The notes under the pieces were generated by a model, which made no database searches, had not been told where the DNA came from, and saw only the letters and a program-made list of their open reading frames with translations. A program made the position numbers and the translations under genes. From positions 1 to 64,000 of IMG/VR virus record IMGVR_UViG_3300027895_000001: 64,000 nucleotides of DNA; one strand, given 5' to 3'. The DNA comes from a virus. Shown one piece after another: positions 2,092-61,812 of this stretch; position 1 is the first letter of the stretch, and each line of letters starts with the position of its first letter.

Positions 2092-3211
2092 GGTCGAGGG
2101 ACCAGACGGCAATACGTATCAGTTCCCCGATGGGACGGATAAGAACGCTGCCATCAAGTATTTCAAGGCCAAGGGGATCGGAGTCAATAAGAACGATAGC
2201 GCGCCTACACTACCGCCCACGAAACAAGGCGCGGTCGGGGCACTGCTTAGCGATCTCAAGGGAATGCTAAAGCCTCGTGGCTACTCTCCGTATCCCGGGA
2301 TGGATCAGGAAGCCAAGTCCGAGGCTGCAGGTCACGCATACGAAGCCGATCAATCACGCAAGCAGGCTGGGTATGGGAGAGTCTACCGCGCGGTAGTTCC
2401 GTTTGCCGAGAGCATTGGCACCAACGTTGAGGGAATGGAGGACGCCGCACGTAAGGGTGATCCGGGTGCGGTGATAGGTCACGCCGTTGCACCAATCGCA
2501 GCCTATGGAGTCGCCAGAACTGGAGCTAAGGTTGGTGGTGCGGTGCTGCGCGCCTCCGACATGATTGGCATTAAGTCACGTGCTGGAGCCGCGTTCGACG
2601 CCATAGAGGGTAAGATCGGAGACGCTCCTGTAGCACACGAGCCTGTACATGCAGCGTTGGATAAGGTTTTCGATCTAGGCGATAAGGGATTCAAGGTTCC
2701 AAAGGTTGCAAAGGCGTATAGCAAGTGGATAACCGAGAGACAACGTAGCGGACATACTGAGCCTGCACCTAGTGGAGGCCGGATAGATACTGGTCCGACG
2801 ACACCGCTGACGTTCAAGGATGCACGTGACTTCTATACAGCGTTCAACGAGTCTATAGATTGGGATAAGGTGCCGGGGGGCAAGGGTGGCAAGATGGGCC
2901 GGGCAATGATGAATGCTCGCCATGAGTTAGGCATGCAGTTGCTCAAGACGGCCAACGAGCAGGGAATGGCCAAAGAATACTCACAGGCTCTAAACGACTA
3001 TCACCGCGCGATGGGATGGCAGACCAAGGCTGGTCCAGTAGGATGGCTAGCAGGAAAGATGGTCGGATATGGTGCTGGTGGCGTAATGGGACATCCGTTC
3101 GTGGGCGGTGCGATTGGGGGCAAGGTAGGACCAGGCATCGCTGGTTCGATGGTACGATCCATTACTGAAGCGGGGCGACCGAAGACGGTTCCGTCGCCGC
3201 CGGACGAGTAG
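2078..3211 (+). CDS. hypothetical protein with C-terminal glycine-zipper-like segment (possible ejection/membrane-inserting virion protein)
   Basis: 377 aa; the start overlaps the previous stop by 14 nt. The C-terminus AGPVGWLAGKMVGYGAGGVMGHPFVGGAIGGKVGPGIAG resembles glycine-zipper membrane motifs. Confidence 0.6.
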   Translation: MPDVEVEGPDGNTYQFPDGTDKNAAIKYFKAKGIGVNKNDSAPTLPPTKQGAVGALLSDLKGMLKPRGYSPYPGMDQEAKSEAAGHAYEADQSRKQAGYGRVYRAVVPFAESIGTNVEGMEDAARKGDPGAVIGHAVAPIAAYGVARTGAKVGGAVLRASDMIGIKSRAGAAFDAIEGKIGDAPVAHEPVHAALDKVFDLGDKGFKVPKVAKAYSKWITERQRSGHTEPAPSGGRIDTGPTTPLTFKDARDFYTAFNESIDWDKVPGGKGGKMGRAMMNARHELGMQLLKTANEQGMAKEYSQALNDYHRAMGWQTKAGPVGWLAGKMVGYGAGGVMGHPFVGGAIGGKVGPGIAGSMVRSITEAGRPKTVPSPPDE

Positions 3212-3377
3212 CGAACGAGACGACTCCGCACCCACGGCACTTTACCACCAGCCGATGCTCCAGCCGCTCGCGGTCGTCAGCGTCGAGCCGCATGATCTTC
3301 CACTGGGCGTCGCAGCGGTAGCACGGAGCGTCAAGCGGGACAGGATTGAGCGCGTTGTGAGGTCGAATGGTCATCAC
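3162..3377 (-). CDS. possible small zinc-ribbon protein
   Basis: CYRC...CRGC pairs. However, its 5' end overlaps the start of the divergent nuclease gene and its 3' end overlaps ORF 2078-3211, so it may be an antisense artefact. Confidence 0.3.
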   Translation of the reverse strand: MMTIRPHNALNPVPLDAPCYRCDAQWKIMRLDADDRERLEHRLVVKCRGCGVVSFATRPAATEPSSVAPLQ

Positions 3378-4401
3378 GGCATCGGATCTTCGGAACTACC
3401 AGAGTTGTCGCCGCCGCTGGCTGCTGGAGCGGTCGTGGCGCGTGGCCCGGTGGAGGCCGCAGCATCTCTTTCGTGCGTGCTTGCGTGAGGGAGTTTTTCA
3501 GCTATCAACAGGTTGCGAGATCGCCATTGTTCGAACCAACCAACGAACTCGGTTTTTATCGGAAGCTGCACGTCCGGGTTTGGACTTTGTGTCAGGCGAT
3601 CCATGGACAGTAGCGCAGGACTGGGCTGGGATGATATCGACGGTATTGACCGCACTATCTCGTCTAGTGCTGCTAACTGTTTCTCGTCCAAGTACGCTAC
3701 CTCTGATAGATGGATTATCATGGCTCCCCTCCACATGGATCGACGACTCCGGCACTCTGCACCGCTGGATCACTGCCTCGATGTGGAACGACGACGCGCT
3801 GGCGCGGGAGGCGCATGGCTGGCCGGTGATCGCCGACATGGTGATGCTCGACGCGCCGCTCCAACTCCACGTGGTCGAGATCGGCCAGCAGCGTGACGGC
3901 CGACGGTACTCCCCCTGGGCGCGGTGTTACCGTCACCCGATCATCGCAGGGCAGTTCCGCTTCCAGCGGCCCGACGGCAAGGGCGGATGGCGCAAGCTCT
4001 CCGGCGAGCAGTGGCGACCGTTGTGGTACGCCGACCAGACCAAGCCCGATCCCGAGGCGTGGTGCGACCTGATGGACGCCGACCACGTCACGCCTTCCCT
4101 TCTGCATCACATATCCATGTCGCAACCTTCGCCGCAGGCGTCACGCCGAGTACGTGCAGAGATAGCGCAATTGGCGTCAGAGATGCAAGCTGCTGCGACG
4201 CGGGCGACTCGATCGGCGGATGGGATGGCAGAGCCGATGGCGCGGGGCGCGTGTGATCCTATGGGAGGTCCGTGCCAGTGGCAAAACTGTTGCTTCGCTC
4301 CCGATCCCGACAAACTAGACATTGGCTCCCTCGGGTTGTATCAAATTCGACAGCTTCCTGAGACGACGCCGCTCGGCCTCGTGCGCTCGCTTGTGCGCTA
4401 G
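3367..4401 (+). CDS. PD-(D/E)XK nuclease, Cas4/RecB-like with Fe-S type cysteines
   Basis: N-terminal ITASDLRNYQSCRRRW is the typical start of Cas4-like nucleases, including the first Cys. C-terminal cysteine cluster CDPMGGPCQWQNCC. Confidence 0.6.
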   Translation: MVITASDLRNYQSCRRRWLLERSWRVARWRPQHLFRACLREGVFQLSTGCEIAIVRTNQRTRFLSEAARPGLDFVSGDPWTVAQDWAGMISTVLTALSRLVLLTVSRPSTLPLIDGLSWLPSTWIDDSGTLHRWITASMWNDDALAREAHGWPVIADMVMLDAPLQLHVVEIGQQRDGRRYSPWARCYRHPIIAGQFRFQRPDGKGGWRKLSGEQWRPLWYADQTKPDPEAWCDLMDADHVTPSLLHHISMSQPSPQASRRVRAEIAQLASEMQAAATRATRSADGMAEPMARGACDPMGGPCQWQNCCFAPDPDKLDIGSLGLYQIRQLPETTPLGLVRSLVR

Positions 4402-4932
4402 AACTGCCGCGTACTTTATTGGATCGGCTTGGAGCTTGGCCCAGTTTTCCTGATTCAACTTGGGATTGAGTTCCCTTCTCTGTCTCTCGTGTTCTCGCTT
4501 GCAGGTAAGACAGAATCGAGTTCCACAACTGAGACATGTATTTTCGAGTGTATAGGCGTGTCCTTGTGGACAGAAGGATAGCCGACTGCGAATCATCCCC
4601 GGAGACTGTCCTCGATGAACGTTTACTATGTGTTCTACCGACTCCAGATGATCTAGTCGAACGCATGGACGATTCCTGCAAAGGTGATCCAGTTCCAATG
4701 GAAAGGGAGGAAGATCGTTGTGTGCTACGAACCATGCTACTTCGTGACCGCGTACCGGACGTTTTATTCCGCCACCTATTGAGAGGTAAGAATATCCCTC
4801 CGAGTCTGGCTTGCCATCCAACGTCCAGCAACCATCGGTGACTATCAACTTTGCCCAGAACCGCTCCACAATGTTCGGGCTTGCTCGTAGCATATCCAAC
4901 AACCGTTGGCGAGTTTCTAAGGTTCTTCGCAT
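4315..4932 (-). CDS. HNH homing endonuclease
   Basis: HNH core DHLCRNRPCVRLDHLE plus a C-terminal CPQGH...CLSCGTRFCLTC zinc ribbon. GGAGGAGT RBS. Visibly AT-richer than the flanks. Confidence 0.85.
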   Translation of the reverse strand: MRRTLETRQRLLDMLRASPNIVERFWAKLIVTDGCWTLDGKPDSEGYSYLSIGGGIKRPVRGHEVAWFVAHNDLPPFPLELDHLCRNRPCVRLDHLESVEHIVNVHRGQSPGMIRSRLSFCPQGHAYTLENTCLSCGTRFCLTCKREHERQRRELNPKLNQENWAKLQADPIKYAAVLAHKRAHEAERRRLRKLSNLIQPEGANV

Positions 4933-4973
4933 ACTCCTCCAATATTACACGCAGACGAGCGTTCGTCGAAGGT

Positions 4974-5114
4974 TCAGGATTGTGCCGTAGCCAGCGCCAC
5001 ATGAGACTCTCCTTTCACTGACACCTCGTGCATGTCGGACCAGTTGTCCCCAGCGCAGCATTCCGCGTCGATCCACAGTCCCTCTGGCGCTATCGTGGGA
5101 TGTCGCAGGCTCAT
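4974..5114 (-). pseudogene. stranded native 3' end of the DNA polymerase gene (46-codon ORF, possibly still translated)
   Basis: Reads MSLRHPTIAPEGLWIDAECCAGDNWSDMHEV..., parallel to the polymerase C-terminus VHPTIAPDGLWIDVELNAGKNWAEMKEV (ends at 6032). GC-rich, unlike the flanking AT-rich genes. Its ATG overlaps the Lar-like stop (ATGA 5111-5114). Below the ORF-track length cutoff. Confidence 0.65.
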
Positions 5115-5536
5115 ACACCTTTGCACTCATTACACAACTCATTAGGTAGGATTACGTCGGCTCCACAGGCATCACAACTACCGTGACCAACTCTACGATT
5201 CCACCGCTCTATAAGTTGTGGTCTCCCATCATCCTTTAATGAATACTGCAAATTGGTTGACGCTGCACACATCGGGTTAGTGCACTCGATAAAGTTAGCT
5301 CCATCGTCAGCATCCTGCAGTTCAGCGCTGGAACCACAAAACGGGCAAGGCTTAAGTTCATCCATAGTGTTCTTCTTCTTCGGCACAAAAGTATGAGCCT
5401 TGCTGAAAGGCAAATGTGATATTCCTGCGTGCTCGTCCGTTGCTTCAGGATACCCACACCTCTCACATACAATAGATTTTCCATCCTTGGATAACTGGCC
5501 CTCAGTACAATAAGGCCAAGACTTTTTCATGCTCAT
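5111..5536 (-). CDS. Lar-family restriction-alleviation-domain protein with extra zinc ribbons
   Basis: KPCPFCGSSAELQ...FIECTNPMCAAS...LIERWNRR matches the Lar family pattern (CPFCG...C..C...WNRR). Start chosen at MSMKK (GGAGG 5 nt upstream, ATGA overlap with the HNH stop). Confidence 0.6.
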   Translation of the reverse strand: MSMKKSWPYCTEGQLSKDGKSIVCERCGYPEATDEHAGISHLPFSKAHTFVPKKKNTMDELKPCPFCGSSAELQDADDGANFIECTNPMCAASTNLQYSLKDDGRPQLIERWNRRVGHGSCDACGADVILPNELCNECKGV

Positions 5537-6063
5537 ACATGCCTCCACGTCTTGCGTCGTACGATACAACTAACGTTCATTCGATGGACCCCGAATATCT
5601 CAGCTAACTGAGTGTAAGTAAAGTCCCCAGTAGCGGCCATGCTACGCATCTTCAAAACTTTTCTCTCGTTTAACTTGGCATTGCCGTGCTTTGATCCCTT
5701 GTTATCGGACTTAGGTATACGCCCACGTCCTTTAGTCCAACAATCCCGCATGTTATCGCCATGTGTCCCAAGGAATAGATGGGCAGGATTGACGCAGGGA
5801 GGATTGTCACAAGAGTGCAATACCTCCATACCATCAGGTATATCTCCCTTAGTAAGCATCCAAGCTACTCTGTGAGCCAACTGAGCGGAATCCTCGTACC
5901 GGAAGCAGCCATAGAACTTATCAGGAGTCTGCGCTGATGTTTTATTGCCACGCCGCGCCGCCATCCACAACCAGCAGTCCCCCTTAGGCCCAAGTCCAGG
6001 GCTATTGTCTACCTTATCCCAGAACAGCACTTCAGGCGTTCGTGACTGCGACCATTGGGACAT
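5533..6063 (-). CDS. HNH homing endonuclease with C-terminal HTH-like tail
   Basis: HSCDNPPCVNPAHLFLGTHGDNMRD core. The tail YTQLAEIFGVHRMNVSCIVRRKTW looks like an HTH. AT-rich. The start overlaps the polymerase stop by 32 nt. Confidence 0.85.
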   Translation of the reverse strand: MSQWSQSRTPEVLFWDKVDNSPGLGPKGDCWLWMAARRGNKTSAQTPDKFYGCFRYEDSAQLAHRVAWMLTKGDIPDGMEVLHSCDNPPCVNPAHLFLGTHGDNMRDCWTKGRGRIPKSDNKGSKHGNAKLNERKVLKMRSMAATGDFTYTQLAEIFGVHRMNVSCIVRRKTWRHV

Positions 6064-8839
6064 TGATCTTAACCTCTTTCATCTCCGCCCAGTTCTTACC
6101 TGCGTTCAGTTCGACATCTATCCACAGGCCATCGGGAGCTATAGTCGGATGTACCAACACCTTACTAGGCTCAACAAGGACTGGGTAAACTTCCGCGACG
6201 TGTTGCTCCAACTCGTCCTCGCGAACAATAAATAACAAATTATCGTGAATATTATTACACAAGTTATATTTCGAGTCAAGTCCTTTATTGTGGAGCAATT
6301 TCATATGCTCTCGTATGTAGCCAAACGCAATGTTAGAGAGGTGATAGGAGATCGCTTCCTCCGCCTGATCCCCATGCGAGTAAGCAGCTTTCTTATAATC
6401 CCACCGGAAGACTTCATAGAACCTCCGCATGTGGCCGTATTCGGTGCGCTGATACTGCTGGTCATGCGCTAGTTGCTGCGCTCGCTTCTGCCACGTGAAT
6501 ATCTTGGGAAACACTTCCTCGTAATCGTCGAGGATGCTTTGCGCCTCCTTGATCGACTTAAAGAACTCCATGTAGCGTTCGAATAGGCCCTTGGCCTTGA
6601 GCCCGTTGCCGATCCCGAGCCCAGCATGTTTGATCTTGGAGTCGCGGATGTGTTTGTATTCCTCGTTCGACTTGAGCCATCGACAGCGCGCCTTGATCTC
6701 GTCGTCGGATTCGCGGACCAGATCCTGCGCCCGCCATAGCTTGAGAAAGTGGCCAGTCATGATGGAGTGCATGTCGATGCGCGCAAATCGGATATACGTC
6801 TCGTCCTCCGCGAGGAATCCGAGCGTTAGTACGTGGCACGACTTATAATCCCACTCCGCGAATAGGTAGCCGTTAGGCGCCTTAATCATACGGCGCGTGG
6901 CTCGGGCCAGCCGACCGTGCTTGGGGAAATTCTGTATGTTGGGATTGCGCGACGACAGTTGGCCGATGCCGGTGTCGAAGGTGAACGTAGTGTGGACGCA
7001 ACCGTCAGCGTGCGGGACGAACCCGTTGATATACGTCCCTCGCATCTTCCCCAGCTCGCGGTACTCGATCACGCGGAGGTAGAAGTCGTCGTCGGTGCGA
7101 TGCGCCAGTCTCACGAGTTCTTTCTTGGCCGTCGTGTCCTTGTCGTTGCCTTCGTCGTCTTGCTCGCGGGATTTGGGACGCTTGTGACCCTTAGCATCCA
7201 TGTATCGCTTGAGTTGGTCCGGCGAATTCGGATTGAAAGGCACGACACGACACCAGCGTGTAAGTCGCTCAGTGCATGGCTCGCCTGTCTCCCCGGAAAT
7301 GGCAGCAACTGAGAAAGATCGCTGCACCAATCCTGTAGTGTCTTTCGGCTTACGTATGTAACCGTAGTCATAGTTCCCTTTCTTCCCGCGCCGTGGCTCC
7401 AGTCCCAGCACTTCCTCCGGCACCCGGCGCTGCAACTCCGCGTCCAGCTCCTGTTGCGCCAAGTCGAACTCCCCGTCCAGCTTCAGCCGCTCGGCGTCGT
7501 CGACTGGGAGCCCGCGCCGCTCCATCGCCGCGAGGATCGGCCGCACCTGCTGCACCTGGCCCACGTACCCACCCACGCAGTCACCGCTGGCGTCGTAGGG
7601 GGAGTCGTAGATCCCGTCGCGCCGCAGCGCGTCGAGCAGGAACGTATACAGGCGCAGGGTCGCGTCCACGTCCACGCAGCCATAGAATTCGAGGTTGGTC
7701 GCCGCGAGGTGCTTCCACGGGAACGGGAACTGGACGAACTGCGCCGCGAACTGGAGGTGCGCGGGCAGGTCCGGCTGCCAGTGGTGGAACATCTGCAGGG
7801 TGTCGTGGACTACGCCGCGTGGTCGGAGGTCTAGTCCTTCTCGCTGGCCGCAGGCTTCTAGGACTTTGTTGTCGAAGAGCCACACATGATGTCCAACCTT
7901 CACATTGTTGCTGTGTAAGATTGACTCAGCGACCTCTCGATATCCTCCTTCCCAAGGGAAAGCGATACCTTCGCCTGTTCTAAGAGAGAACTGGATAAGC
8001 CGGATCCGAGTGTCGGTAAATCCGTCTCTAGCATCTTCATCGAGACTTGCAGATTCGTAAGTCTCGATATCGTAGCTGAAAGGGAGTCCGCTGTTGCCTT
8101 TAACTCGTAGCGAAAAAGATCGAGCCTCGTCAAGGCTAGGATGTAGCGAATATCTGAGCTGTCCATACATCTCACTCCTTTCAGGATCAATATTCCATAT
8201 CCACTCCCGGTCCCGTCCAGCAGCGACGTTGACCGCGCGCTGGAGGGTGCGGGCGAATACTCCCTGCAGGTGGGCCGCGCCACGGCGGATGAACGCGGGA
8301 TGGAATGTCGATACAGTCGGTATCTGATCCGGTCCCGGCAACACATACCCGCAGAGATGGCTCACTCCCCTAGCCTCTCCCGCCTCCCCCGTCAGCTCCC
8401 GCGTGGCCGTATCGCCAAGCGCCAGGATCGCCCGTGGCCGACGGTCGCGGATCGCGGCATCGAGGTTGGGCCGGCAGTGGGTGAGCGCCGACCACTCCCA
8501 CGGCGCGCCTGCGAGCCAGTTCTTGGCCGGGCGGCAGCGCAGGGTGTTCGTGATCGAGAATTGCTGGCGCGAGTAGCCCATCCGTTTGAAGGTGCGTTCG
8601 AGGACGGAGCCGCTGGGAGCGTAGGGGCGCAGGGGGAGTTGGTCGCGGGCCTCAAGCTCGCCGGATGCCTCTGCGACGATCATCACGCCCAGCGAGCCCG
8701 TGCCCTCGACGGCGGAGAAGTCGGTGCCCATAGAGTGACAGGGGCAGCCCTCGCAACTATTTGGTTTCTGGCGCACTGTCGTCCTCGATGAAGATCTCTG
8801 GGAAATCTCTACGAATGTGTGCCTCACCAAACGTGTCAA
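6032..8839 (-). CDS. family A DNA polymerase with N-terminal family-4 UDG-like domain and 3'-5' exonuclease region
   Basis: - UDG-like: CEGCPC, VMIVAEASGELE, FHPAFIRRG.
- Exo I-like: FSYDIETYES.
- Pol motifs: EWDYKSCHVLTLG (A-like), RDSKIKHAGLGIGNG (B-like), NNIHDNLLF (C-like).
- The start could lie downstream of 8839, since it overlaps ORF 8757-8963. Confidence 0.9.
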   Translation of the reverse strand: MTRLVRHTFVEISQRSSSRTTVRQKPNSCEGCPCHSMGTDFSAVEGTGSLGVMIVAEASGELEARDQLPLRPYAPSGSVLERTFKRMGYSRQQFSITNTLRCRPAKNWLAGAPWEWSALTHCRPNLDAAIRDRRPRAILALGDTATRELTGEAGEARGVSHLCGYVLPGPDQIPTVSTFHPAFIRRGAAHLQGVFARTLQRAVNVAAGRDREWIWNIDPERSEMYGQLRYSLHPSLDEARSFSLRVKGNSGLPFSYDIETYESASLDEDARDGFTDTRIRLIQFSLRTGEGIAFPWEGGYREVAESILHSNNVKVGHHVWLFDNKVLEACGQREGLDLRPRGVVHDTLQMFHHWQPDLPAHLQFAAQFVQFPFPWKHLAATNLEFYGCVDVDATLRLYTFLLDALRRDGIYDSPYDASGDCVGGYVGQVQQVRPILAAMERRGLPVDDAERLKLDGEFDLAQQELDAELQRRVPEEVLGLEPRRGKKGNYDYGYIRKPKDTTGLVQRSFSVAAISGETGEPCTERLTRWCRVVPFNPNSPDQLKRYMDAKGHKRPKSREQDDEGNDKDTTAKKELVRLAHRTDDDFYLRVIEYRELGKMRGTYINGFVPHADGCVHTTFTFDTGIGQLSSRNPNIQNFPKHGRLARATRRMIKAPNGYLFAEWDYKSCHVLTLGFLAEDETYIRFARIDMHSIMTGHFLKLWRAQDLVRESDDEIKARCRWLKSNEEYKHIRDSKIKHAGLGIGNGLKAKGLFERYMEFFKSIKEAQSILDDYEEVFPKIFTWQKRAQQLAHDQQYQRTEYGHMRRFYEVFRWDYKKAAYSHGDQAEEAISYHLSNIAFGYIREHMKLLHNKGLDSKYNLCNNIHDNLLFIVREDELEQHVAEVYPVLVEPSKVLVHPTIAPDGLWIDVELNAGKNWAEMKEVKINVPMVAVTNA

Positions 8840-8963
8840 TGAGGCGCTTCTTGACCGCAGGGTCGCGTCTGGCGTTCAGCACCGCCTGCCGCCGCGCCCA
8901 CGGCGTGGTCGTGCCGTAGGGGCCGATGATCTCAGGTTCCTTGGTGTCGTTGTCGTCACTCAT
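8757..8963 (-). CDS. hypothetical small acidic protein
   Basis: ATG 8963 overlaps the helicase stop (ATGA 8960-8963). 68 aa. Confidence 0.5.
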   Translation of the reverse strand: MSDDNDTKEPEIIGPYGTTTPWARRQAVLNARRDPAVKKRLIDTFGEAHIRRDFPEIFIEDDSAPETK

Positions 8964-10273
8964 AGCCACGGGGATACCCTCCTGTCCGTCGCGCATTGTG
9001 TCACGTAGCGTTCTCGCTGTCCCACGACTCTGAGTCCGCCGAGCGTCCGGCATCGGCTCATGGCGACGTAGAGCATCGCAGGCTGGCCGAAGAAGTGATC
9101 GCGGATGTCAATCTGCGCCCGGTCGAGCGAGATACCCTGCGACCGGTGCACCGTGGACGCATAGGCCAAGCGGACGGGCCAGTACTCTAGCTGGCCTTCT
9201 ACGAAGCGTCGTCTGTTAGGCATCCAGTGTGGCGACGGCAGCCATTCCCCGTGGCCGTTGGCGCGGTAGGCGGGCCATCCATCCGGCTTGCGCTTCTGTC
9301 CCACGTCGCGGATCACGCGCTCGACGCCTACCAGCTGGCCGTTGCGCACCAGCCGGACTTGCAGCGACGATCCGTACCACTCTTCGACGTGGCCTGTGTC
9401 TCCATTGGCGTACAACATGTCGCCCTCTTCGTCGTAAGAGTTCGACAGTAACATTACCAGTGCGCCCCGCTTGAGCGTCACCCGATCCGGCACCTGCTTC
9501 CATTCCCCCCGCTGCTTGCCCCAGCGGCGATTGCCGAGGGAGAACGTCGCGCCGGAAAGCCGATCCAGCGCCATCCCGTTATACCGATCCACCTGATCGT
9601 TCTTGGAGACGATGGTCGTGCCGTCGAACTGGATGTCGAGGGCAGAGTGCCACTCAAGGCCCTCCCGCGACAGCAACTCGGCGGCACCACCGCCATCTCC
9701 CACCCGTGTCAGGTTCAGCGCTTCGAGGAAGGGGCCTGCGTCCTGCCGCCACACCTTGGTGAGCCGCGTCGTGTGGGCGTCGAAGCGGTGCCACTCGTCG
9801 GACTCGAATGCCCATCGGGCCTTCACTGGCGGCAGTTGCGCGAAGTCTCCGACCAGCGTAAGGCCCAGTGGTGGCGCGGGGGACAGGAACGAATTGCACT
9901 CCAGCGCGGCGCGGACGAGGATCGACAGTTGATCGCCGTCCATCATCGACACCTCGTCGATCACGATCCGGCGGTAGTCGTCGCGCAGCTCCTTGAGCCG
10001 CCGGACGAGCGAGCCCTGGAGGTAGGCGTCGCGCAGGGAGTCGGTGTCGAAAAAACGCAAAAGCGCGTTCAGGGTAGTTGTGCCCAAATTAATTGCCGCA
10101 ATTCCTGTAGTTGCTGCAAGTATGCCAGACGTAGGGTCAGCAGCGATTCGCTCTCGCCACATCCACGTTTTCCCCGTTCCAGCAGCGCCCGAGGTAAATT
10201 CACAAGGCACTGTAGCTTCCTGAACGTTCACATCGTTTATGGTCTCGCTAGTTATATAAATATCGTCAGTCAT
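8960..10273 (-). CDS. PIF1/RecD-like superfamily 1 DNA helicase
   Basis: Walker A SGAAGTGKT, Walker B RRIVIDEVSM, and C-terminal YASTVHRSQGISLD (UvrD_C_2-like). The first ~70 codons (10060-10273) are visibly AT-richer than the rest. Confidence 0.85.
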   Translation of the reverse strand: MTDDIYITSETINDVNVQEATVPCEFTSGAAGTGKTWMWRERIAADPTSGILAATTGIAAINLGTTTLNALLRFFDTDSLRDAYLQGSLVRRLKELRDDYRRIVIDEVSMMDGDQLSILVRAALECNSFLSPAPPLGLTLVGDFAQLPPVKARWAFESDEWHRFDAHTTRLTKVWRQDAGPFLEALNLTRVGDGGGAAELLSREGLEWHSALDIQFDGTTIVSKNDQVDRYNGMALDRLSGATFSLGNRRWGKQRGEWKQVPDRVTLKRGALVMLLSNSYDEEGDMLYANGDTGHVEEWYGSSLQVRLVRNGQLVGVERVIRDVGQKRKPDGWPAYRANGHGEWLPSPHWMPNRRRFVEGQLEYWPVRLAYASTVHRSQGISLDRAQIDIRDHFFGQPAMLYVAMSRCRTLGGLRVVGQRERYVTQCATDRRVSPWL

Positions 10274-10857
10274 TGCGCTTTCCTTCGAGCGATGCCTGCT
10301 CTACGCCCTTCACTTATCATCATGCCCAATGCCGCTCCATTAGCACGAGCGGGGAATATCTTCATATAACGTAGAACGTCCTGACTTTCAGTCTTCTTGA
10401 CAATCAGATAGGGCATCAGTCGCAGCAATACCTTCTCAATTTCTGATCGCTTACTTATGTACAGAGAATTACAATCATCAGGACGAGCCGTGTATACGGC
10501 AGACTTTATCCCATTGGAAGCAAAGAAGGCTTGTATCCTTCGTAGTACAGCCAGACCTCGTGCATGGGACTGAGCGATACTAAAGTGAAATCCATATCCA
10601 CCACTAGTATTACCTCGCTTGATGATTATGGTTCCTTCACCATCGAAGAATCCCGCAACGTAGGCCCACGAGCCAGCGACGCCACAGGTAAACTCGCAGG
10701 GCACCTCAGGTTCCGATACCGCTGCTTCCACTTCGCCTTCCACGTCCAGTGATCGTAGGTCGCAGGAGTCGTCAGGCCTGCCCGCTTGCGCCGCGCCCAC
10801 TCCCGCGTTTCCTTCGCATGACATATCCGGCATATCCAGACGCGGCGTGTCTTCCAT
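10270..10857 (-). CDS. LAGLIDADG homing endonuclease fused in frame to a remnant of the helicase N-terminus
   Basis: LAGLIDADG motif YVAGFFDGEGT, preceded by EVPCEFTCGVAGS, which duplicates helicase residues VPCEFTSGAAGT. The stop overlaps the helicase ATG (ATGA 10270-10273). AAGGAG lies 9 nt before ATG 10857. Confidence 0.8.
   Translation of the reverse strand: MEDTPRLDMPDMSCEGNAGVGAAQAGRPDDSCDLRSLDVEGEVEAAVSEPEVPCEFTCGVAGSWAYVAGFFDGEGTIIIKRGNTSGGYGFHFSIAQSHARGLAVLRRIQAFFASNGIKSAVYTARPDDCNSLYISKRSEIEKVLLRLMPYLIVKKTESQDVLRYMKIFPARANGAALGMMISEGRRAGIARRKAQ
10669..10746 (-). pseudogene. stranded native 5' fragment of the helicase gene (up to the interrupted Walker A)
   Basis: DVEGEVEAAVSEPEVPCEFTCGVAGS aligns with helicase DVNVQEATVPCEFTSGAAGT. 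It is GC-rich, whereas the functional copy is AT-rich. Confidence 0.6.
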
Positions 10858-10906
10858 ACTAAGTTAGCTCCTTTGAGTAAGTGGCCCTGAGGACAACGGT
10901 CGGGCG

Positions 10907-11110
10907 CTAGAACCTCTCGTCGCGCCATGTGGCTCCACAGGACTGACATTCTATCCGGTCGCCCTTGACGACCAATACGTGTCCGGTAAGGCGACTGCAT
11001 CGGCCTTCTTTACCTGCTTGGGACAGGTCGGCAGTTCTCCCGCGATCCCAAGTCAGAGATGGCAGCTTTCTATACCTACCAGACAGTGATGGAACAGTAA
11101 CGGTGCTCAT
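10907..11110 (-). CDS. possible small zinc-ribbon protein
   Basis: Start at MSTVTV, with GGAGG 5 nt upstream. RCSRLTGHVLVVKGDRIECQSCG resembles the zinc ribbon found at the C-termini of the HNH proteins here. Confidence 0.45.
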   Translation of the reverse strand: MSTVTVPSLSGRYRKLPSLTWDRGRTADLSQAGKEGRCSRLTGHVLVVKGDRIECQSCGATWRDERF

Positions 11111-11280
11111 ATCATCCTCCATAATTACGACGAGGGACTCGGCAGGGTCGCTTTTCCCGGGTCGAAATCGCGTCGCCCCTCATCGCAGTGGCACCACACT
11201 TGGGGCAGCGGGTATGGGATTAGCCACGGTCCCGCTGCCGGTCGCGGACGGCTCGCCAGAGTGCCCACGACAACTCTAGC

Positions 11281-12036
11281 CTACTTGGCGTGCGCCGCCC
11301 CCGTCCCTCGCGTCGCCTGCGTCTCCTTGAGCGAGTAGGGAGCCACGATCCGAGCCTGCGCGCGCACCTGGCTCTTGCATGTCGGACACTGCACAATCGG
11401 GTCGTGCACGCCCGGCGTCTTGGTCGTGGGGAACCGGTGCATGCCTGCGAGAAAGGGTCGTGGAGACTTCTCGCCGTGCTTCTTGGCCGCCTCCTGACAC
11501 TGCTGGCACTCCGCCGACCACGCAGTCTCTAGGATCAGTTCCGGCTCCGACGCCAACACTGCAAGCAGCGCGTCCATGTATACCTTCTGCGAGCCCGACG
11601 CCGGCACCTTGCCGCCCAGCTTGCCGATCATCGTGGCCGCCTGTGACGTTCCCTTGCGCGCGTCCACGAGGGCCTTCACCCAGTAGTCGGTGAGCTTTAC
11701 GCCGTCGAACTCGCCACTGTGGTCGATGATCGAGTATTCGATGTTGGTAGCGAAGAACGGCGCGCCGTTGGCCATCTTGGCACGGCTGAATACGGCGTAG
11801 CGTTGCAGTTGGCCCTTGTCGTCCTTGATATCCACCTGCTTGGCCTTGGCGCGCCATTTCCCGTCCGGCAGCGGAGGCAGGACCGCATACGCGTCGGCTT
11901 CAGGGTTGATGGTGAGGATCTCCGACGTGAGGCGGGGGTCGTTGGGATCTACCAAGGTTGATGGATCGCCGCTCGTGGCTGCGGCTTGTTCCGCAGGCGC
12001 GTCAGCATACGTAACATCGCCGAAGCTACTAGACAT
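11281..12036 (-). CDS. DUF669-like protein, candidate phage ssDNA-binding protein
   Basis: LPPLPDGKWRAKAKQVDIK...beta-rich core resembles DUF669 proteins, which accompany Sak4-type ATPases. C-terminal CQQC...CPTC. The call is tentative. Confidence 0.45.
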   Translation of the reverse strand: MSSSFGDVTYADAPAEQAAATSGDPSTLVDPNDPRLTSEILTINPEADAYAVLPPLPDGKWRAKAKQVDIKDDKGQLQRYAVFSRAKMANGAPFFATNIEYSIIDHSGEFDGVKLTDYWVKALVDARKGTSQAATMIGKLGGKVPASGSQKVYMDALLAVLASEPELILETAWSAECQQCQEAAKKHGEKSPRPFLAGMHRFPTTKTPGVHDPIVQCPTCKSQVRAQARIVAPYSLKETQATRGTGAAHAK

Positions 12037-13780: not shown

Positions 13781-14152
13781 TTATTTTGTGTAGCCTCGAC
13801 CTGGGCTGGTCTCGGTACATCCGCTCGTACTCCCACATGAGGGACAGACGTATTCCTTAGGCTGCGGACTTGGCTGCATCGTGGCTCCGCAGAGCGTGCA
13901 ACTCGGACCTTTATAGGTTACGTTGGAAACATAGTTTGTCTGTTTGGCGTTCTCTGCTACGGAGCGAGACTCTACGTGTTGTTCGAGCCATTCTTCGTGA
14001 GCAATTACAACTTGAAGCGCGGCCACTAACTTGCGCCAGTAATCGTAGCTCCTTTCAGCAGTGTCAAGATCAGCTTCAGCCTTTTGGTATCTCTCCCTAG
14101 ACTGGTCCAGTCGCTCCTTAAGCCCAGCAGTAAATTCTTCCTGATTGAACAT
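13781..14152 (-). CDS. hypothetical coiled-coil protein with C-terminal zinc ribbon
   Basis: ATG 14152 is preceded by GAGGAG; the track start at 14179 is a GTG overlapping the upstream gene. CTLC...CPSC. Confidence 0.5.
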   Translation of the reverse strand: MFNQEEFTAGLKERLDQSRERYQKAEADLDTAERSYDYWRKLVAALQVVIAHEEWLEQHVESRSVAENAKQTNYVSNVTYKGPSCTLCGATMQPSPQPKEYVCPSCGSTSGCTETSPGRGYTK

Positions 14153-14162
14153 AGGCTCCTCT

Positions 14163-14420
14163 TCACCCACAGTAGACACACTGCACCTTGCCGGGACGCA
14201 CGACCTCCATACTCATTCGTCTGCATTCAGGGCACTTTCGTGACCACACTGATCCGAATCCGTCCTCAATTGTTTCGGCAGTCTCTGGCGGCGTGGCTGT
14301 GTCCTGTAGCGGAGCCGCAGCCCCAGCCAATCGGCCTGCTATTTCTTTTGCAAAAGCGACCGCTACAAGGCGGTTCAATTCATCAAGCACATCCTCTAGT
14401 GGTCGGTTAGTCATTGCCAT
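14163..14420 (-). CDS. hypothetical protein with C-terminal zinc ribbon
   Basis: Start at MAMTNRP (ATG 14420 or 14414, GGAG upstream), overlapping the upstream stop. CPEC...CVYC. Confidence 0.5.
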   Translation of the reverse strand: MAMTNRPLEDVLDELNRLVAVAFAKEIAGRLAGAAAPLQDTATPPETAETIEDGFGSVWSRKCPECRRMSMEVVRPGKVQCVYCG

Positions 14421-14865
14421 TCTCCGGTTGTGCCTGACACTCAACTCCATCGAATTCTGCCGATTCCCAACAGTGCTGGCACAGTCTGTGGGCGACATTT
14501 TCCCGAGCGCCGCAATTACTGCAAGCCTGACACTCAACTGGTTTAGCAGCCCTAGCCTCGACTAATGTCATCTCCGAGATTTGTACTTCTGGTGAGTGGG
14601 ACAGATGCGCCTCTACGTATTCCTCGGCCTCGTCTCGACTGGATGCAAGATACTGAGGAAATCCGCTGTTAAATACGATGAAAGCCTTGATCGCTAGTTG
14701 TGGCGACTGTTGGGTGGGTTGCTCCTGACACTGCGCGAGGATTTTTGCTTCGCACTGCTCAGAACTTACTGTTTGGCCGGCAGCAGTTCCCTTAAGAAAA
14801 TAGCAAGCGAGTTCAATAGCTGCCGCCCGGATTCCCTGCTTAGTAATCAAAAGCTGGTCACTCAT
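14407..14865 (-). CDS. hypothetical protein (Cys-rich C-terminus)
   Basis: ATG 14865 overlaps the upstream stop (ATGA 14862-14865). CQACSNC...CQHC. Confidence 0.55.
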   Translation of the reverse strand: MSDQLLITKQGIRAAAIELACYFLKGTAAGQTVSSEQCEAKILAQCQEQPTQQSPQLAIKAFIVFNSGFPQYLASSRDEAEEYVEAHLSHSPEVQISEMTLVEARAAKPVECQACSNCGARENVAHRLCQHCWESAEFDGVECQAQPENGND

Positions 14866-15152
14866 AATGGCATCCATTCTTGAGCCCTCGATTTTGCCCG
14901 CCGAAAGCCATTCTCTACACGGCTGAAGTTTCCGCCGCTCCAGTAAACAGAAAGCGCCCATAGATTGGTCGGCCTAATCGCCCCAAAGATGAAAGCCTGC
15001 GCCGTCGCAGTGACGCATTCGTAGCAGCGCGGGGCAATTCTTGTCCATTTGTGCTTAGTAGGCGTGAGTTGGTCACTTTTCATTGGCGATCTCCAACATA
15101 TTGAGCAGTGCCTGTGCCTGATTAGCCATCTTTGGATCATCCTTCTGTTCAC
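14862..15152 (-). CDS. hypothetical zinc-ribbon protein
   Basis: ATG 15152 overlaps the upstream stop (ATGA 15149-15152). CSIC...CYEC. Confidence 0.5.
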   Translation of the reverse strand: MNRRMIQRWLIRHRHCSICWRSPMKSDQLTPTKHKWTRIAPRCYECVTATAQAFIFGAIRPTNLWALSVYWSGGNFSRVENGFRRAKSRAQEWMPL

Positions 15153-15385
15153 CCATGCGGCGGGTTTCTTGGAGCTTGTGAATTAGCTTCTCTCGCTCCT
15201 CCCCAGCAAGGCTTTACCGTGAGTCCTTCCGGCACAATGAATCCCTTGCCAGTCCAGATGCAGGTTGCCTTGGATTCCAGATCGCCATACATCCACGGCT
15301 GCACAATGGCATCCGGTTTCCGCCAGTAGGAACTAAGCACGCCTACGGGGTGGATGCCGCCATAACAATCTGGACAGATCGACAT
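15149..15385 (-). CDS. hypothetical protein
   Basis: 78-aa track ORF, CPDC near the N-terminus, coupled to the downstream gene. Confidence 0.5.
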   Translation of the reverse strand: MSICPDCYGGIHPVGVLSSYWRKPDAIVQPWMYGDLESKATCIWTGKGFIVPEGLTVKPCWGGAREANSQAPRNPPHG

Positions 15386-15402
15386 AGGTCACCACTTTTT
15401 AC

Positions 15403-15666
15403 TTAATTGAGAACGAGGTTTAGTTTCACAATCGTATAATCATCCCGCTGCCAATGCAGATTAACCCTAGCTTTTTCAGCATAACGAAGGCTGTTTGTGA
15501 TGGCTCTTTCCGCTAAACTACGGGATACGAAGACGGATGGCTTAGGCGAGGACCAAAGAATACCCTTCGCATTACGTCGCATTGGTGCACCGGAGCCGTC
15601 GCAAACTATACAGAATTCCGCGAGCAAAATGCCGTTACTATCTAAATATTTAGACTCAGTTTTCAT
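15403..15666 (-). CDS. hypothetical protein
   Basis: 87-aa track ORF in the AT-rich block; no motif recognised. Confidence 0.5.
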   Translation of the reverse strand: MKTESKYLDSNGILLAEFCIVCDGSGAPMRRNAKGILWSSPKPSVFVSRSLAERAITNSLRYAEKARVNLHWQRDDYTIVKLNLVLN

Positions 15667-15698
15667 TGCTCACCATTCTCCTCACAAGACTCGGGATT

Positions 15699-15962
15699 TC
15701 AGCCCGGAATGTTGGGGTCGTCGATCGGATACGATCTCCCGTCACTGCCGATAACTAAATCCCCTACAAAACCGAGGCAGTTGCAAGCGCGTCCGGTGTC
15801 TGGCGGTTTGCCGGGAGCCTCGCAGTCATAACCTAAGCAGCGAAATTCCGCTGTTGGATCGGTTGGGGCGACATTCTTCGCATCATCCAACCTGTGCCAA
15901 TCGGACGAATGCCCGCAATGCTTGCATATATCAACTCGTGGTAGTAGATCTCCCATATTCAC
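15699..15962 (-). CDS. hypothetical Cys/His-rich protein
   Basis: CKHCGHSSDWH...CLGYDC...CNC. 87 aa. Confidence 0.55.
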   Translation of the reverse strand: MNMGDLLPRVDICKHCGHSSDWHRLDDAKNVAPTDPTAEFRCLGYDCEAPGKPPDTGRACNCLGFVGDLVIGSDGRSYPIDDPNIPG

Positions 15963-60100: not shown

Positions 60101-61351
60101 TATACGAACGACGCCATCGGGCCAATCGCGGCGGCGATCATCACCGGGGAGTGGGACGGCGGGGATGTGCGCGCAGGGGAGGTGTGGGGCGACGCGTGGC
60201 TCGATTCTAATCCCTCAGCGGCGACAGGCGTGAGCGTGACTCCAATGAGCGGAGGCGTGCCGCTGGCCGCAACGACGGTAATTGCGCCGTCGGCGTCGCG
60301 AACGCAGACGCAGATATCGCTGGGCGGTGGCGTCCTCAGCGACTTCCTCGGCCTCCAGATCGCATGGACGGACAACTTCACCGCGCAAGGCGCAGCGACT
60401 CGGATCAATATATGGCAGCCCTCATTTATTCAGAAGCCAGAGACGATCACGGATCGCTACACGGACTGGTACGACGGCGGAACGGAATCGGCGAAGTATA
60501 TCCAGGGATTCCTACTCCACGCGGATACGTTCAACGCGCTACGAGGATTGCAGGTACGAGACAGCGACACTCTCACGCTGCATCCGTTCACGCCTGTCGT
60601 GCAGCACAACGGCGAGAGCATCATCGCGTATTCGTTCGTGACGCCGTTCATCGCGCACACCGTGCGGCTGGAGCCGTCGCTGGTCGGCGGGCCAATATCG
60701 ACGGAGATCCTGAGCGTAGTCAACAATCCCATATTCAACACGCAGGTTGTGGCGACGGTCGCCAACAGCGACGGATTCGCATTAGGTGCGGAGGCCACGA
60801 TCACTGAAGTAGCGCCATATGATGGCACGTTCCCGATTACCAGCGTGGGGCCGGGGTATATCGGGTGGACCGATCCCAGCCTTACCGAGTCCTACCCTAC
60901 CGAGGAAGACGGCCTCATATCCGCCATCTCGATGGGTGTACAGGTGCCGTGGCGGTTCTTTGGCGTCGAGTGGGTGTTCGAGTCGACGCCGGAGGCTGCG
61001 GAGACGTGGCAGACGCAGGGCACAGCGTTCGGCCTGCTCGGGTATATGCACGTGAAGCAGGTGAGCGCGTGCTACGCCGCGACGGAGCCGGTGACGTTGA
61101 CGGTGACCTGCTACGGTGGCCAGCAGCCCATGCCGATCACACTCCCGTCGACGGGCGGCGTCATGGCGAAGCTCACGTTCATACTGACAGCGAACAAGGG
61201 CGTTATATATTTCTTTTCTGCTACGTCTACAGCACCATTCCAACTGTTCCTAGAAAATTGGGAAATTTGGGTTGGTGGCTGGAGTCGTACAGATAATTAT
61301 CTCAGATACAGATCCCTTGGCGGGGCTACGGGAGATCAAGCGCGCATATGA
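57149..61351 (+). CDS. large virion/tail protein (1400 aa)
   Basis: GTG 57149 with GGAGG 6 nt upstream. The track start at 56924 would overlap the previous gene by 236 nt. The last ~50 codons are AT-richer. Confidence 0.7.
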   Translation: MADSGRNYTRPNEGFRFRYGGMKLNAPPDALTPGNKYVYGRNIRVVNDSAIETRPGLASFYPTNSHSVTDLRAFAALNTDNDPVIVAVSNDNNVWTQAGVVGALSGSAGFPGAAMIPFRPAQSPNPWMYIANGNDYQKFSAPVAGVVTQQKVGIAEPQTAPNAASTTTLYNIFSPNPSYTHAGVAGAVSNTARVTDTVQSVFADPGVPTTGFATLGVSTSQVYTRQMALSISDTGVLVQDVYPAQPVAIGILAVYYFTGTTGRCIVVPANLGAGPGNEGQSLYEQNLLGSLRRGALIKFSGGSETCIVWSVTEGPDGTVCLETSTTGTHTSAETFTAPQAIQVNLPASSFTVGQSITSPTVTFALSGAGIGTETSTAGLGNPFVYSTDSFQEADYLHFSINVSVLTALNEAKLLFDVGDGSFTQNLYYYTVRVSDIEAGVQNTLTQLGAAQLVDQRATIDEETAAASGNQLSTSSSAQTTPGDLQWAEIIFPISALTRVGNDQTKTLQNVNAVQFLVNAASLAGTAFSYPINIQLGPVTIWGGYSPDVGQSGAPYLYRVRPRSSLTGAKGNPSPETRYGVNPRREQVTLALPSAAYDGQIDTWDVFRYGGSVTSWRWIGQSPTTSTTFIDNYSDEAALAGEELEFDNYEPWPSIDVPLMNGLAAPVTGFVASIWVPTPNNVLRWLPGTEVRIGGTNVYTLRSRPTLLATGRGINYYQFEFVENAGYILTTNAAVYEPNLARQLLPYMWGPDAEGTVFAVGDPLRPGTISFAKNYAPDSAPDSYDIEITPPTEPLLGGELLDGLSFVASTERWWALYPQPSNPTQRYSYIQQPLPRGLAAPWGHCTDGKTIWWWAKDAIWDSQKGSLTDADLYNLFPHDGVAGVNVTYNGYEVLAPDYAYAANFRLAHCNGYLYATYVDSTGNWRCLVCDTRTAAWSVDIYNNGSPPSAFYHVEQQGGTLLTPGLSTYPVLVAGGSTGGVFIQSPYTNDAIGPIAAAIITGEWDGGDVRAGEVWGDAWLDSNPSAATGVSVTPMSGGVPLAATTVIAPSASRTQTQISLGGGVLSDFLGLQIAWTDNFTAQGAATRINIWQPSFIQKPETITDRYTDWYDGGTESAKYIQGFLLHADTFNALRGLQVRDSDTLTLHPFTPVVQHNGESIIAYSFVTPFIAHTVRLEPSLVGGPISTEILSVVNNPIFNTQVVATVANSDGFALGAEATITEVAPYDGTFPITSVGPGYIGWTDPSLTESYPTEEDGLISAISMGVQVPWRFFGVEWVFESTPEAAETWQTQGTAFGLLGYMHVKQVSACYAATEPVTLTVTCYGGQQPMPITLPSTGGVMAKLTFILTANKGVIYFFSATSTAPFQLFLENWEIWVGGWSRTDNYLRYRSLGGATGDQARI

Positions 61352-61812
61352 ATATCACAGAGAAGAAGCGTAAATACAATCTAGCCTATCTTGAGAGTCA
61401 CCGTGATGCTATAAGAGTAAGTAAGCGAGAGTGGAGGAAAGAACGCTACGCCGCTGACCCTGATTATCTCATGCGTTATTACTGGCGCAATCGAGACAGA
61501 GTGTTAGCCAAATCGAAATTGAAACTTGCACTCATAAAACGGGAGACCATAGAGGCATATGGCGGACATTGCGCGTGTTGTGGAGAAGAAAATGTTGAAT
61601 TCTTGTCTCTTGATCATATTAACAATGACGGCAACGAGCATCGTAAGACAGTGTGTTCTGGCTCTGGGTTCTACATAAAACTCAAGAACGCTGGCTTCCC
61701 CAAAGGGCAATTACAAGTGTTGTGCTTCAATTGCAATATGGCTAAGGGGATATACGGACAATGCCCACATGTGTTAGTGATACAAGAACGATTGAATCTC
61801 GTTAGCATCTGA
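61348..61812 (+). CDS. HNH homing endonuclease
   Basis: CACCG...LSLDHINNDGNEHRK...LCFNCNMAKG. ATGA overlap with the upstream stop. AT-rich. Confidence 0.85.
   Translation: MNITEKKRKYNLAYLESHRDAIRVSKREWRKERYAADPDYLMRYYWRNRDRVLAKSKLKLALIKRETIEAYGGHCACCGEENVEFLSLDHINNDGNEHRKTVCSGSGFYIKLKNAGFPKGQLQVLCFNCNMAKGIYGQCPHVLVIQERLNLVSI

Follow-up and report, generated by a model that had tools for sequence, protein, structure and literature searches.

The stretch of DNA analysed here, called the window below, consists of the first 64,000 nucleotides (positions 1-64,000) of the IMG/VR virus record IMGVR_UViG_3300027895_000001. It carries a gene for a PIF1-like helicase whose 5' end is occupied by the coding sequence of a putative LAGLIDADG homing endonuclease. 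Coordinates are given in window numbering unless another locus is named, and every gene considered at the locus is carried by the minus strand. Two open reading frames (ORFs) are concerned: a fusion ORF of 195 amino acids (10857..10270), made of a helicase-like N-terminus followed by the endonuclease, and a helicase ORF of 437 amino acids (10273..8960). The endonuclease stop and the helicase start overlap as ATGA (10270-10273), as a sequence-only reading of this stretch had already stated. The features of the locus, in the direction of transcription, are the following:

10868..10873, minus strand: Shine-Dalgarno-like AAGGAG of the native helicase start, 10 nt 5' of its ATG at 10857 (seen by direct reading), which would now serve the fusion ORF
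10669..10857, minus strand: native helicase 5' end left stranded, codons 1-63 (an acidic tail followed by VPCEFTCGVAGS), recognized from the N-termini of homologues; it breaks off at GVAGS|GKT and continues in frame as the endonuclease
10669..10704, minus strand: old copy of the duplicated segment, VPCEFTCGVAGS, identical at 27/36 nt to 10175..10210
10270..10668, minus strand: predicted single-motif LAGLIDADG endonuclease domain, residues 64-195 plus the TGA at 10272..10270 (Pfam, PDB profile, AlphaFold2 (AF2) and Foldseek)
10281..10286, minus strand: Shine-Dalgarno-like GAAGGA, 7 nt 5' of the helicase ATG and within the 3' end of the endonuclease ORF (read directly)
10211..10273, minus strand: new, putatively donor-type helicase tail MTDDIYITSETINDVNVQEAT, 21 codons, assigned by tail comparison; its ATG overlaps the endonuclease stop
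10175..10210, minus strand: new copy of the duplicated segment, VPCEFTSGAAGT, continuing into an intact Walker A motif, GAAGTGKT
10052..10210, minus strand: AT-rich helicase core codons, the first ~53-54 (VPCEF...LLRFF), with a GC content at third codon positions (GC3) like that of the endonuclease block
8960..10051, minus strand: GC-rich, putatively resident remainder of the PIF1-like helicase gene (Pfam, homologues, GC3 of 0.82-0.84)

A scan for promoters and terminators over 9800-11400 returned nothing exceeding chance.

An assembler could in principle have stitched together two helicase alleles of co-occurring phages, and one other locus that carries a related endonuclease (L002) stems from the soil run that also yielded one copy of this genome, ERR1700733. 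However, a 64-kb Logan contig and a JGI contig, the latter from another sample accession, contain the same 3588 nt with 100% identity, and the protein of this locus is also present in ENA. The structure is thus found in JGI, ENA and Logan assemblies and in two sample accessions. Moreover, both junctions keep long open reading frames and a precise ATGA overlap, and the independent loci L001 and L003 bear the same type of block. Hence, a chimera is hardly credible and the structure of the locus is probably not an assembly artefact.

The endonuclease domain

Residues 65-149 of the fusion ORF match LAGLIDADG_1 (PF00961, 28.5 bits for a cut-off of 23.1) and LAGLIDADG_3 (PF14528, 23.2 bits for a cut-off of 22.5). 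The LAGLIDADG motif is VAGFFDGEG (residues 67-75), with the conserved acidic residue in place. Residues W64, A68-G75, P149, L151 and K154 are invariant in 13 relatives, and the GFFDGEG and PYLIVKK motifs are conserved. Searched against the PDB, the family profile retrieves I-MsoI (1e-19), then I-CvuI and I-CreI. The AF2 model places helices at 64-74, 98-114 and 137-150 and strands at 75-80, 89-97, 120-124 and 129-134, giving an alpha-beta-beta-alpha-beta-beta-alpha core; its 10-residue means of the predicted local distance difference test (pLDDT) are at least 90 over residues 61-170, except for a mean of 64 at residues 81-90. The best Foldseek match of the model is I-CreI (6fb0_B, E = 1.8e-7, root-mean-square deviation of 2.0 over 112 columns), and at least the top 40 matches in the PDB are all I-CreI, I-CvuI or I-MsoI.

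Residues 64-195 are thus predicted, from family profiles and from the model, to be a single-motif LAGLIDADG homing endonuclease of the I-CreI/I-MsoI type. Like the homodimeric enzymes I-CreI, I-MsoI and I-CvuI, the domain has one LAGLIDADG motif, about 130 residues and the same fold. Unlike these enzymes, which are encoded by introns of algal chloroplast rRNA genes and to which it is only 20-25% identical, the window enzyme is intron-less and bears a foreign N-terminal extension of 63 residues. A search of GenBank phages at the nucleotide and protein levels gave no match for the endonuclease. A scan of metagenomes with the endonuclease profile returned only relatives of 26-41% identity, nearly all of them free-standing and in other contexts.

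All free-standing relatives begin with M-x-x-W. The window domain begins at W64 (WAYVAGFFDGEGTIIIKRG), and no start codon was found in the window near this residue. Therefore, the endonuclease appears to be deprived of its own first two or three codons, and its sole plausible start is the helicase ATG at 10857. Since the endonuclease has no start codon of its own, the fusion is probably its route of translation.

The helicase and its two 5' ends

The downstream ORF matches PIF1 (PF05970, 51.5 bits), AAA_30 (PF13604, 46 bits) and AAA_19. Its Walker A motif, GAAGTGKT, is intact (residues 28-35) and the protein is 70-80% identical to more than 30 uninterrupted homologues. It is thus predicted to be a complete helicase of superfamily 1, of the PIF1/RecD-like type. 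No DNA match was found among GenBank phages and the helicase is at most 32% identical to proteins of cultured phages; the phage group is an uncultured one.

The sequence-only reading had claimed that the native 5' end of this gene survives as an in-frame fusion and that this upstream copy stops within the P-loop. Comparison with homologues bears out both points. In a protein search with the fusion ORF, the helicase P0126 matches residues 1-63 with 67% identity (E = 8e-17), and P0007, P0012, P0039 and P0040 are also homologous to these codons at their N-termini. Uninterrupted homologues start MEDTPR...SLD.E.EV...VPCEFTCGxAGSGKT: P0126 reads MEDTPGMEMPDM...DDACDLRPLDAEGEVQAAIPEPQVPCEFTCGVAGSGKT, P0007 and P0012 are similar, and the fusion ORF of the window reads MEDTPRLDMPDM...DDSCDLRSLDVEGEVEAAVSEPEVPCEFTCGVAGS, then WAYVAGFFDGEG. 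Because the homologues continue ...GxAGS-GKT, the window copy breaks exactly inside Walker A, between GVAGS and GKT, and the junction of the fusion protein reads ...CGVAGSWAYVAG....

The native tail gives alignment scores of 106-141 with P0040, P0007, P0012, P0039, P0042 and P0034, versus 14-45 for unrelated tails. Furthermore, the 5' flank is collinear with loci devoid of the endonuclease: 10964..10682, which includes the ribosome-binding region, corresponds to L006 2605..2881 (73%), and 10909..10673 aligns with L008 68..304. No secondary structure is predicted by AF2 for residues 1-63, where confidence is mostly low, with 10-residue pLDDT means of 49-67 over residues 1-60. Judged from these alignments, residues 1-63 of the fusion ORF are the native N-terminus of a PIF1-like helicase and are orthologous to the uninterrupted homologues.

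The GVAGS of this remnant lies four residues before the YVAGF of the endonuclease (...CGVAGSWAYVAGFF..., 10650..10704, minus strand). The V-A-G codons are alike at both places (GTC GCT GGC and GTT GCG GGA) but unused by the junction, and this proximity is probably a coincidence.

The segment that had been described as present twice is indeed repeated in frame, VPCEFTCGVAGS (10704..10669) recurring as VPCEFTSGAAGT (10210..10175) with 27/36 nt identical. The same reading had left open that such a similarity might be no better than that of shuffled controls. The protein local score is 59, versus a mean of 32.2 (standard deviation 4.8) and a maximum of 64 in 1000 shuffles, and the DNA local score is 29, versus a maximum of 27 in 500 shuffles. 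On its own, the similarity of the repeat is only moderately above chance; the homology search is decisive.

The tail that precedes the new copy has another history. Compared with the native tail and with every sampled tail, MTDDIYITSETINDVNVQEAT reaches a best score of 31 and is therefore unrelated to them, although it closes with EAT before VPCEF, as is typical of the family. Since this tail is unrelated to the native one, the second helicase 5' end must have been imported. On this comparison, it is predicted to derive from another helicase gene, and duplication in place is ruled out. The new tail has no homology to the 3' extension of the L001/L003 endonucleases described below. An origin as a decayed 3' extension of an L001-type endonuclease was also considered, and dropped: the ATAACT.GC.AGAC match was equalled or beaten in 147/500 shuffles. 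A donor query of 75 residues (new tail plus core) retrieved only the window's own protein and two fragments with 59% identity.

Could a group I intron or an intein carry the endonuclease, the helicase being restored by RNA or protein splicing? A LAGLIDADG ORF in frame with the upstream coding sequence is found in many mitochondrial introns, and Walker-A codons are a classic point of intein insertion. However, no Rfam family matched at E <= 1 in the window (8500-12000), L001 or L003. The endonuclease ORF ends with TGA (10272..10270), and the helicase proceeds in a different frame from its own ATG, with a second VPCEF..AG; joining codon 63 to any downstream point would duplicate or delete VPCEF...AG. 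Moreover, the LAGLIDADG helix begins at the junction (residue 64), which leaves no space for intein splicing blocks, and no Hint domain was found with Pfam. Splicing of either type can thus be given only a very slight chance.

Base composition of the block

The GC content in 100-nt windows drops to 0.42-0.55 from ~10050 to ~10650 and stays near 0.65 to the left and right of this interval. The upstream helicase copy had been said to be GC-rich and the downstream copy AT-rich like the endonuclease, and this holds: the stranded codons 1-63 have a GC of 0.63, whereas GC3 is 0.41 in the endonuclease, 0.43 in the new 21-codon tail and 0.44 in the first 54 core codons, versus 0.82-0.84 in the rest of the helicase. 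The steps expected at about 10060 and 10650 also exist. The maximum-likelihood change point of GC3 falls at helicase codon 74 (RFF|DTD, ~10051), with 0.43 before and 0.84 after, and 38 consecutive codons ending in G or C lie past it; the left step is the S63|W64 junction itself (10669|10668). The helicase is thus predicted, from its composition and its tail, to be a chimera whose first 74 codons differ in history from the rest.

Across the whole window, GC ranges from 0.44 to 0.70 (600-nt windows), and long stretches of low GC lie at 4800-6600, 13800-16800, 27600-28800 and 45600-48600. Since the genome is a mosaic in this respect, a GC dip by itself is not diagnostic here.

Related loci with and without the endonuclease

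The nearest endonucleases, P0123 (L001/L002) and P0122 (L003), are 56-60% identical to that of the window and occupy the same locus in two other phage lineages. In both, an in-frame joint links the endonuclease to the acidic helicase tail native to that lineage: the remnant in L003, MSFDASPDPAA...VPAPA, corresponds to the first residues of P0022 (L036), and the one in L001 to those of P0029 (L071). Both remnants end before VPCEF, so that the left junctions differ from that of the window, lying ~48-66 nt farther upstream, and no duplication is seen. Left flanks agree closely up to the junction (98.4% identity for L003 versus L036, 92% for L001 versus L071), and similarity picks up again ~100-140 nt into the helicase core. 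These comparisons with L036 and L071 are best read as a clean replacement at the carrier loci. Presence of the endonuclease is thus polymorphic: it is found in the window, L001/L002 and L003, and absent from L006, L008, L035, L036, L038-L041, L043 and L071.

The first 54 core codons are also AT-rich in L001 and L003 (GC3 of 0.37 and 0.44), the tract ending at the same FF|DTDS. The same tract has a GC3 of 0.59-0.91 in nine endonuclease-free loci. The codons after the tract (up to 120 of them, only 36-83 being available in the short contigs L001-L003) have a GC3 of 0.75-0.89 in all loci.

In the cassettes of L001 (1432..2357), L002 and L003 (158..1217), the endonuclease bears a C-terminal extension of ~60 residues resembling a helix-turn-helix (HTH). 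Within the DNA of this extension, the helicase reading frame, which differs from that of the endonuclease, stays free of stops for up to 36 codons. A conserved ATG lies 36 codons before VPCEF, preceded by a good Shine-Dalgarno sequence, AAGGAG or GAGGGAG, and a GTG lies 6 codons before VPCEF. It is possible that two proteins are produced here from overlapping frames.

Between the endonucleases of L001 and L003, the rates of nonsynonymous and synonymous change (dN and dS) are 0.079 and 1.87, which indicates purifying selection, i.e. that these endonucleases would be maintained; dS is saturated between the window endonuclease and those of L001/L003, so that the dN/dS comparison covers only the L001-L003 pair. 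Such selection, together with in-frame fusion to a helicase tail in the window, L001/L002 and L003, might suggest that the fusion is a domesticated protein with a phage function, such as recruitment to the replisome or exclusion of competitors. However, each lineage has captured a different segment, for which disorder is predicted, and the element is absent from most relatives of the phage. The in-frame joints are equally well explained by the need of the endonuclease for a start codon. Domestication therefore seems quite improbable.

Two further loci carry elements at gene ends. In L036, a 201-residue ORF (3738..4343) with an HNH-like NNGNYEVGNVRW and no Pfam match overlaps the 3' end of the helicase gene, and the helicase locus may attract elements of this kind at either end. 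L004 (IMGVR_UViG_3300003323_000675, 2347..4414) is a mirror image of the window: a LAGLIDADG ORF (3992..4414, 37% identical) stands right after a large-terminase-like ORF (2347..3990). Both ORFs finish with the same 21 residues, ILDKVRERREQRSSRRSITGY, with many synonymous differences between the DNA copies and a mean column identity of 82% over ~94-nt aligned windows that reach upstream of the repeat. This shared end suggests that the 3' end of the gene was duplicated and that one copy was fused to the C-terminus of the endonuclease.

Origin of the structure

We consider it likely that a free-standing I-CreI-like LAGLIDADG gene entered a phage gene for a PIF1-like helicase at its 5' end and brought a replacement start with it, no intron or intein being involved. 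The mobile block would extend from ~10668 to 10052 and, as deduced from the sequence features, is predicted to comprise the endonuclease ORF, a foreign helicase start (Shine-Dalgarno, ATG and 21-codon tail) and ~54 core codons, including a re-spelled Walker A. The intron-less arrival of an endonuclease with a donor-derived helicase 5' end, which had been proposed from the sequence, is supported by the unrelated tail, by the GC3 that it shares with the endonuclease and by the lack of intron RNA (Rfam) or intein features.

We infer the following course of events. The enzyme would first have cleaved a helicase allele devoid of the endonuclease, at or close to the Walker-A codons (in or near GGCTCGGGCAAGACC). 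The right end would then have been restored from the donor through homologous recombination beyond ...FF|DTDSLRD, and the left end, ...GCTGGCTCG, would have been joined illegitimately to the start of the donor endonuclease ORF. The resident 5' end (codons 1-63) would thereby have been stranded in place. Thanks to the in-frame joint, the endonuclease would be made from the native ribosome-binding site and ATG of the helicase, with a disordered helicase tail of 63 residues, and the helicase would be translated from the imported start, coupled through the ATGA with the endonuclease stop. With its Walker-A region re-spelled, the carrier allele would resist cleavage by its own enzyme. The upstream-shifted left junctions of L001 and L003 fit resection from a break near Walker A.

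Two other indications of the target were sought. In a scan for pseudo-palindromes, the type of long target that enzymes of this class cut as homodimers, the best site in the replaced tract covers the Walker-A codons of endonuclease-free alleles with 5/9 pairs, and a better site with 6/9 pairs lies over the DEVSMMD codons, outside the tract; this indicator was dropped as too weak. Fixed differences between carrier and non-carrier alleles were also tried, and amount to only a few scattered synonymous positions (TGC->TGT, AAC->AAT), which define no clear target.

Several observations weigh against invasion with an imported helicase start as we describe it. The proposed cleavage site depends only on the position of the junction and on the pseudo-palindrome just mentioned. 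No donor was found among the sampled sequences: none has the MTDDIYITSETINDV tail, and the closest endonuclease is ~57% identical. At the protein level, the AT-rich tract is no farther from the GC-rich clade (80-85% identity) than the rest of the gene, so that an origin from a distant low-GC phage looks unlikely. Low-GC patches are common elsewhere in the genome, for instance inside polA. The L001 and L003 endonucleases are 88% identical while the adjacent helicase tracts are only 69% identical, and the L003 tract retains residues of its own lineage (YAW/FAW, LLSFF). Finally, L003 and L036, which are near-isogenic, differ over core codons 0-54 by 21 synonymous GC-to-AT changes and 0 AT-to-GC changes, and their divergence declines with distance from the endonuclease. 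The retained lineage residues and the one-way changes indicate that the tract does not simply travel as a unit with the endonuclease. Hence, the claim of a donor-derived helicase 5' end stands, but the AT-rich tract may not be purely imported; in L003, it may partly reflect AT-ward divergence on a resident background.

Low-GC relatives (49-55% GC) were also considered as donors and set aside, with only 42-50% protein identity versus the 80-85% of the tract to the GC-rich clade.

The comparisons of L003 with L036 and with L001, and the protein divergence of the tract, which is no greater than that of the rest of the gene, would also agree with local re-spelling, in which the endonuclease was inserted and ~54 neighbouring helicase codons diverged in place towards AT. 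Possible drivers are a mutational bias, break repair that is error-prone, or selection, either to avoid being cleaved or to make the new translation start accessible. However, the functional copy in the window possesses a separate start codon and Shine-Dalgarno sequence along with an unrelated tail of 21 residues, and the native copy is still present upstream, so that a second helicase 5' end must have been imported. Moreover, the GC3 step is abrupt, changing from 0.43 to 0.84 at one codon, followed by the run of 38 codons ending in G or C, whereas decay in place would be expected to taper. Re-spelling as the whole explanation is therefore unlikely, and invasion by an endonuclease gene that brought a replacement helicase start is preferred.

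Comparison with known systems

The mobile ORFs (mORFs) of fungal mitochondria are the closest precedent. In these, an endonuclease ORF brings a carboxy-terminal gene segment of foreign origin, and the native end, though displaced, is retained (PMC3630166). Hybrids of this type in Glomus sp. concern atp6, atp9, cox2 and nad3, with LAGLIDADG endonucleases in 3/4 of them, and the Allomyces macrogynus atp6 with an endonuclease ORF is cited in the same work as an earlier example (PMC3630166). The duplicates are close in protein and differ mainly at synonymous sites, and in-phase fusions of gene and ORF occur (PMC3630166). As in mORFs, a free-standing endonuclease ORF lies within a gene with no intron or intein, a foreign copy of the gene end is present, and the native end is kept as a duplicate. 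Moreover, it is the divergent copy (tail score of at most 31, GC3 of the endonuclease) that continues into the gene body, and the native copy (tail scores of 106-141) that is displaced. Unlike mORFs, in which the carboxy-terminal end is replaced, the window has a replaced 5' (amino-terminal) end; L004 provides an example at the 3' end, as in mORFs, within the same endonuclease family. The window also differs in being a phage genome rather than organelle DNA, in the position of the break in Walker-A codons, and in the fusion of the displaced end to the N-terminus of the endonuclease, to which it would give a ribosome-binding site and a start codon.

Intronless homing by SegF, SegG and MobE of phage T4 is covered by references listed in PMC8351571 and PMC10448857. 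As in these systems, a free-standing endonuclease gene adjoins an essential replication gene and is present or absent among relatives, and an endonuclease-free allele would be cleaved. Co-conversion of the flanks, a mark of T4 homing, may also have taken place: the ~54-codon AT-rich tract accompanies the endonuclease in 3/3 lineages, with a gradient of divergence in L003 versus L036, yet the tracts differ more from each other than the endonucleases do. The T4 Seg and Mob enzymes are GIY-YIG or HNH proteins that have their own starts and are intergenic, and both flanks recombine homologously. Unlike the window element, they leave no duplicated gene end and no fusion.

Essential phage genes split by endonucleases are also known, i.e. 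nrdA of the Aeromonas phage Aeh1 (mobE), T4 genes 39/60 and split gp43. As in the window, an endonuclease lies inside an essential gene without a splicing element and the gene still works. However, both pieces are needed and assemble in these cases, whereas here the downstream ORF is predicted to be complete and the upstream piece redundant. LAGLIDADG ORFs of mitochondrial group I introns can be fused in frame to the upstream exon. The window element would likewise borrow the translation signals of its host gene through an in-frame fusion, but no intron RNA was detected with Rfam and the downstream gene begins at a start of its own. A full-text literature search of incomplete coverage found no description of this arrangement in a phage.

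Other genes of the window

Other endonuclease-like and low-GC genes were observed in the window. An HNH_3 endonuclease ORF (5533..6063, minus strand; Pfam 54 bits, with an HTH-like C-terminal tail) overlaps by 32 nt the 3' end of a DNA polymerase A gene (6032..8839, minus strand). The latter encodes an N-terminal domain resembling uracil-DNA glycosylase (UDG) and is thus a UDG-PolA fusion (PF03167 and PF00476, from the precomputed table for an identical contig). In the 3' part of polA (6032..6600, minus strand), the last ~100 codons have a GC3 of ~0.5 versus ~0.77 upstream, polA being patchy overall (0.45-0.95), and may be another gene-end tract associated with an endonuclease. Small low-GC genes are also found at 4315..4932 (minus strand), 5111..5569 (minus strand) and 61348..61812 (plus strand). 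Among these are a weak HNH_3-like ORF (18.9 bits, below the cut-off), an ORF resembling Lar, involved in restriction alleviation (47.8 bits), and a third ORF with HNH-like Cys/His motifs and no Pfam match, in a 0.44-GC island right after an ORF of 1475 residues.

Implications

The block may be one case of a general strategy in the phage LAGLIDADG family, namely self-immune replacement of a gene end with in-frame capture of the native end. This is a tentative proposal, which we regard as somewhat doubtful. Such a strategy may need neither an intron or intein nor start and stop signals of the element's own. The fusions of the three lineages may be independent events, and the terminase 3' end of L004 may result from the same strategy. 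The Walker-A junction may mark the natural cleavage site, and the AT-ward acceleration of the 54 codons may be a side effect, either of breaks repaired again and again or of an arms race over immunity that acts on an essential ATPase motif.

The locus appears to be a rare preserved intermediate, in which the imported and the resident gene ends have both been kept. Since both are kept, the junction points to the site of the break. Hence, the locus points to the Walker-A codons of a PIF1-like helicase as a concrete target that can be tested for an uncharacterised LAGLIDADG enzyme. For annotation, it would be a mistake to count the 195-residue ORF as a new endonuclease architecture. Moreover, tracts of this kind in the core genes of phages will distort both trees and estimates of recombination. 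Gene-end replacement, known in fungal mitochondria, would extend to phages and to the 5' end of genes, where this strategy would also solve the translation-start problem of the element.

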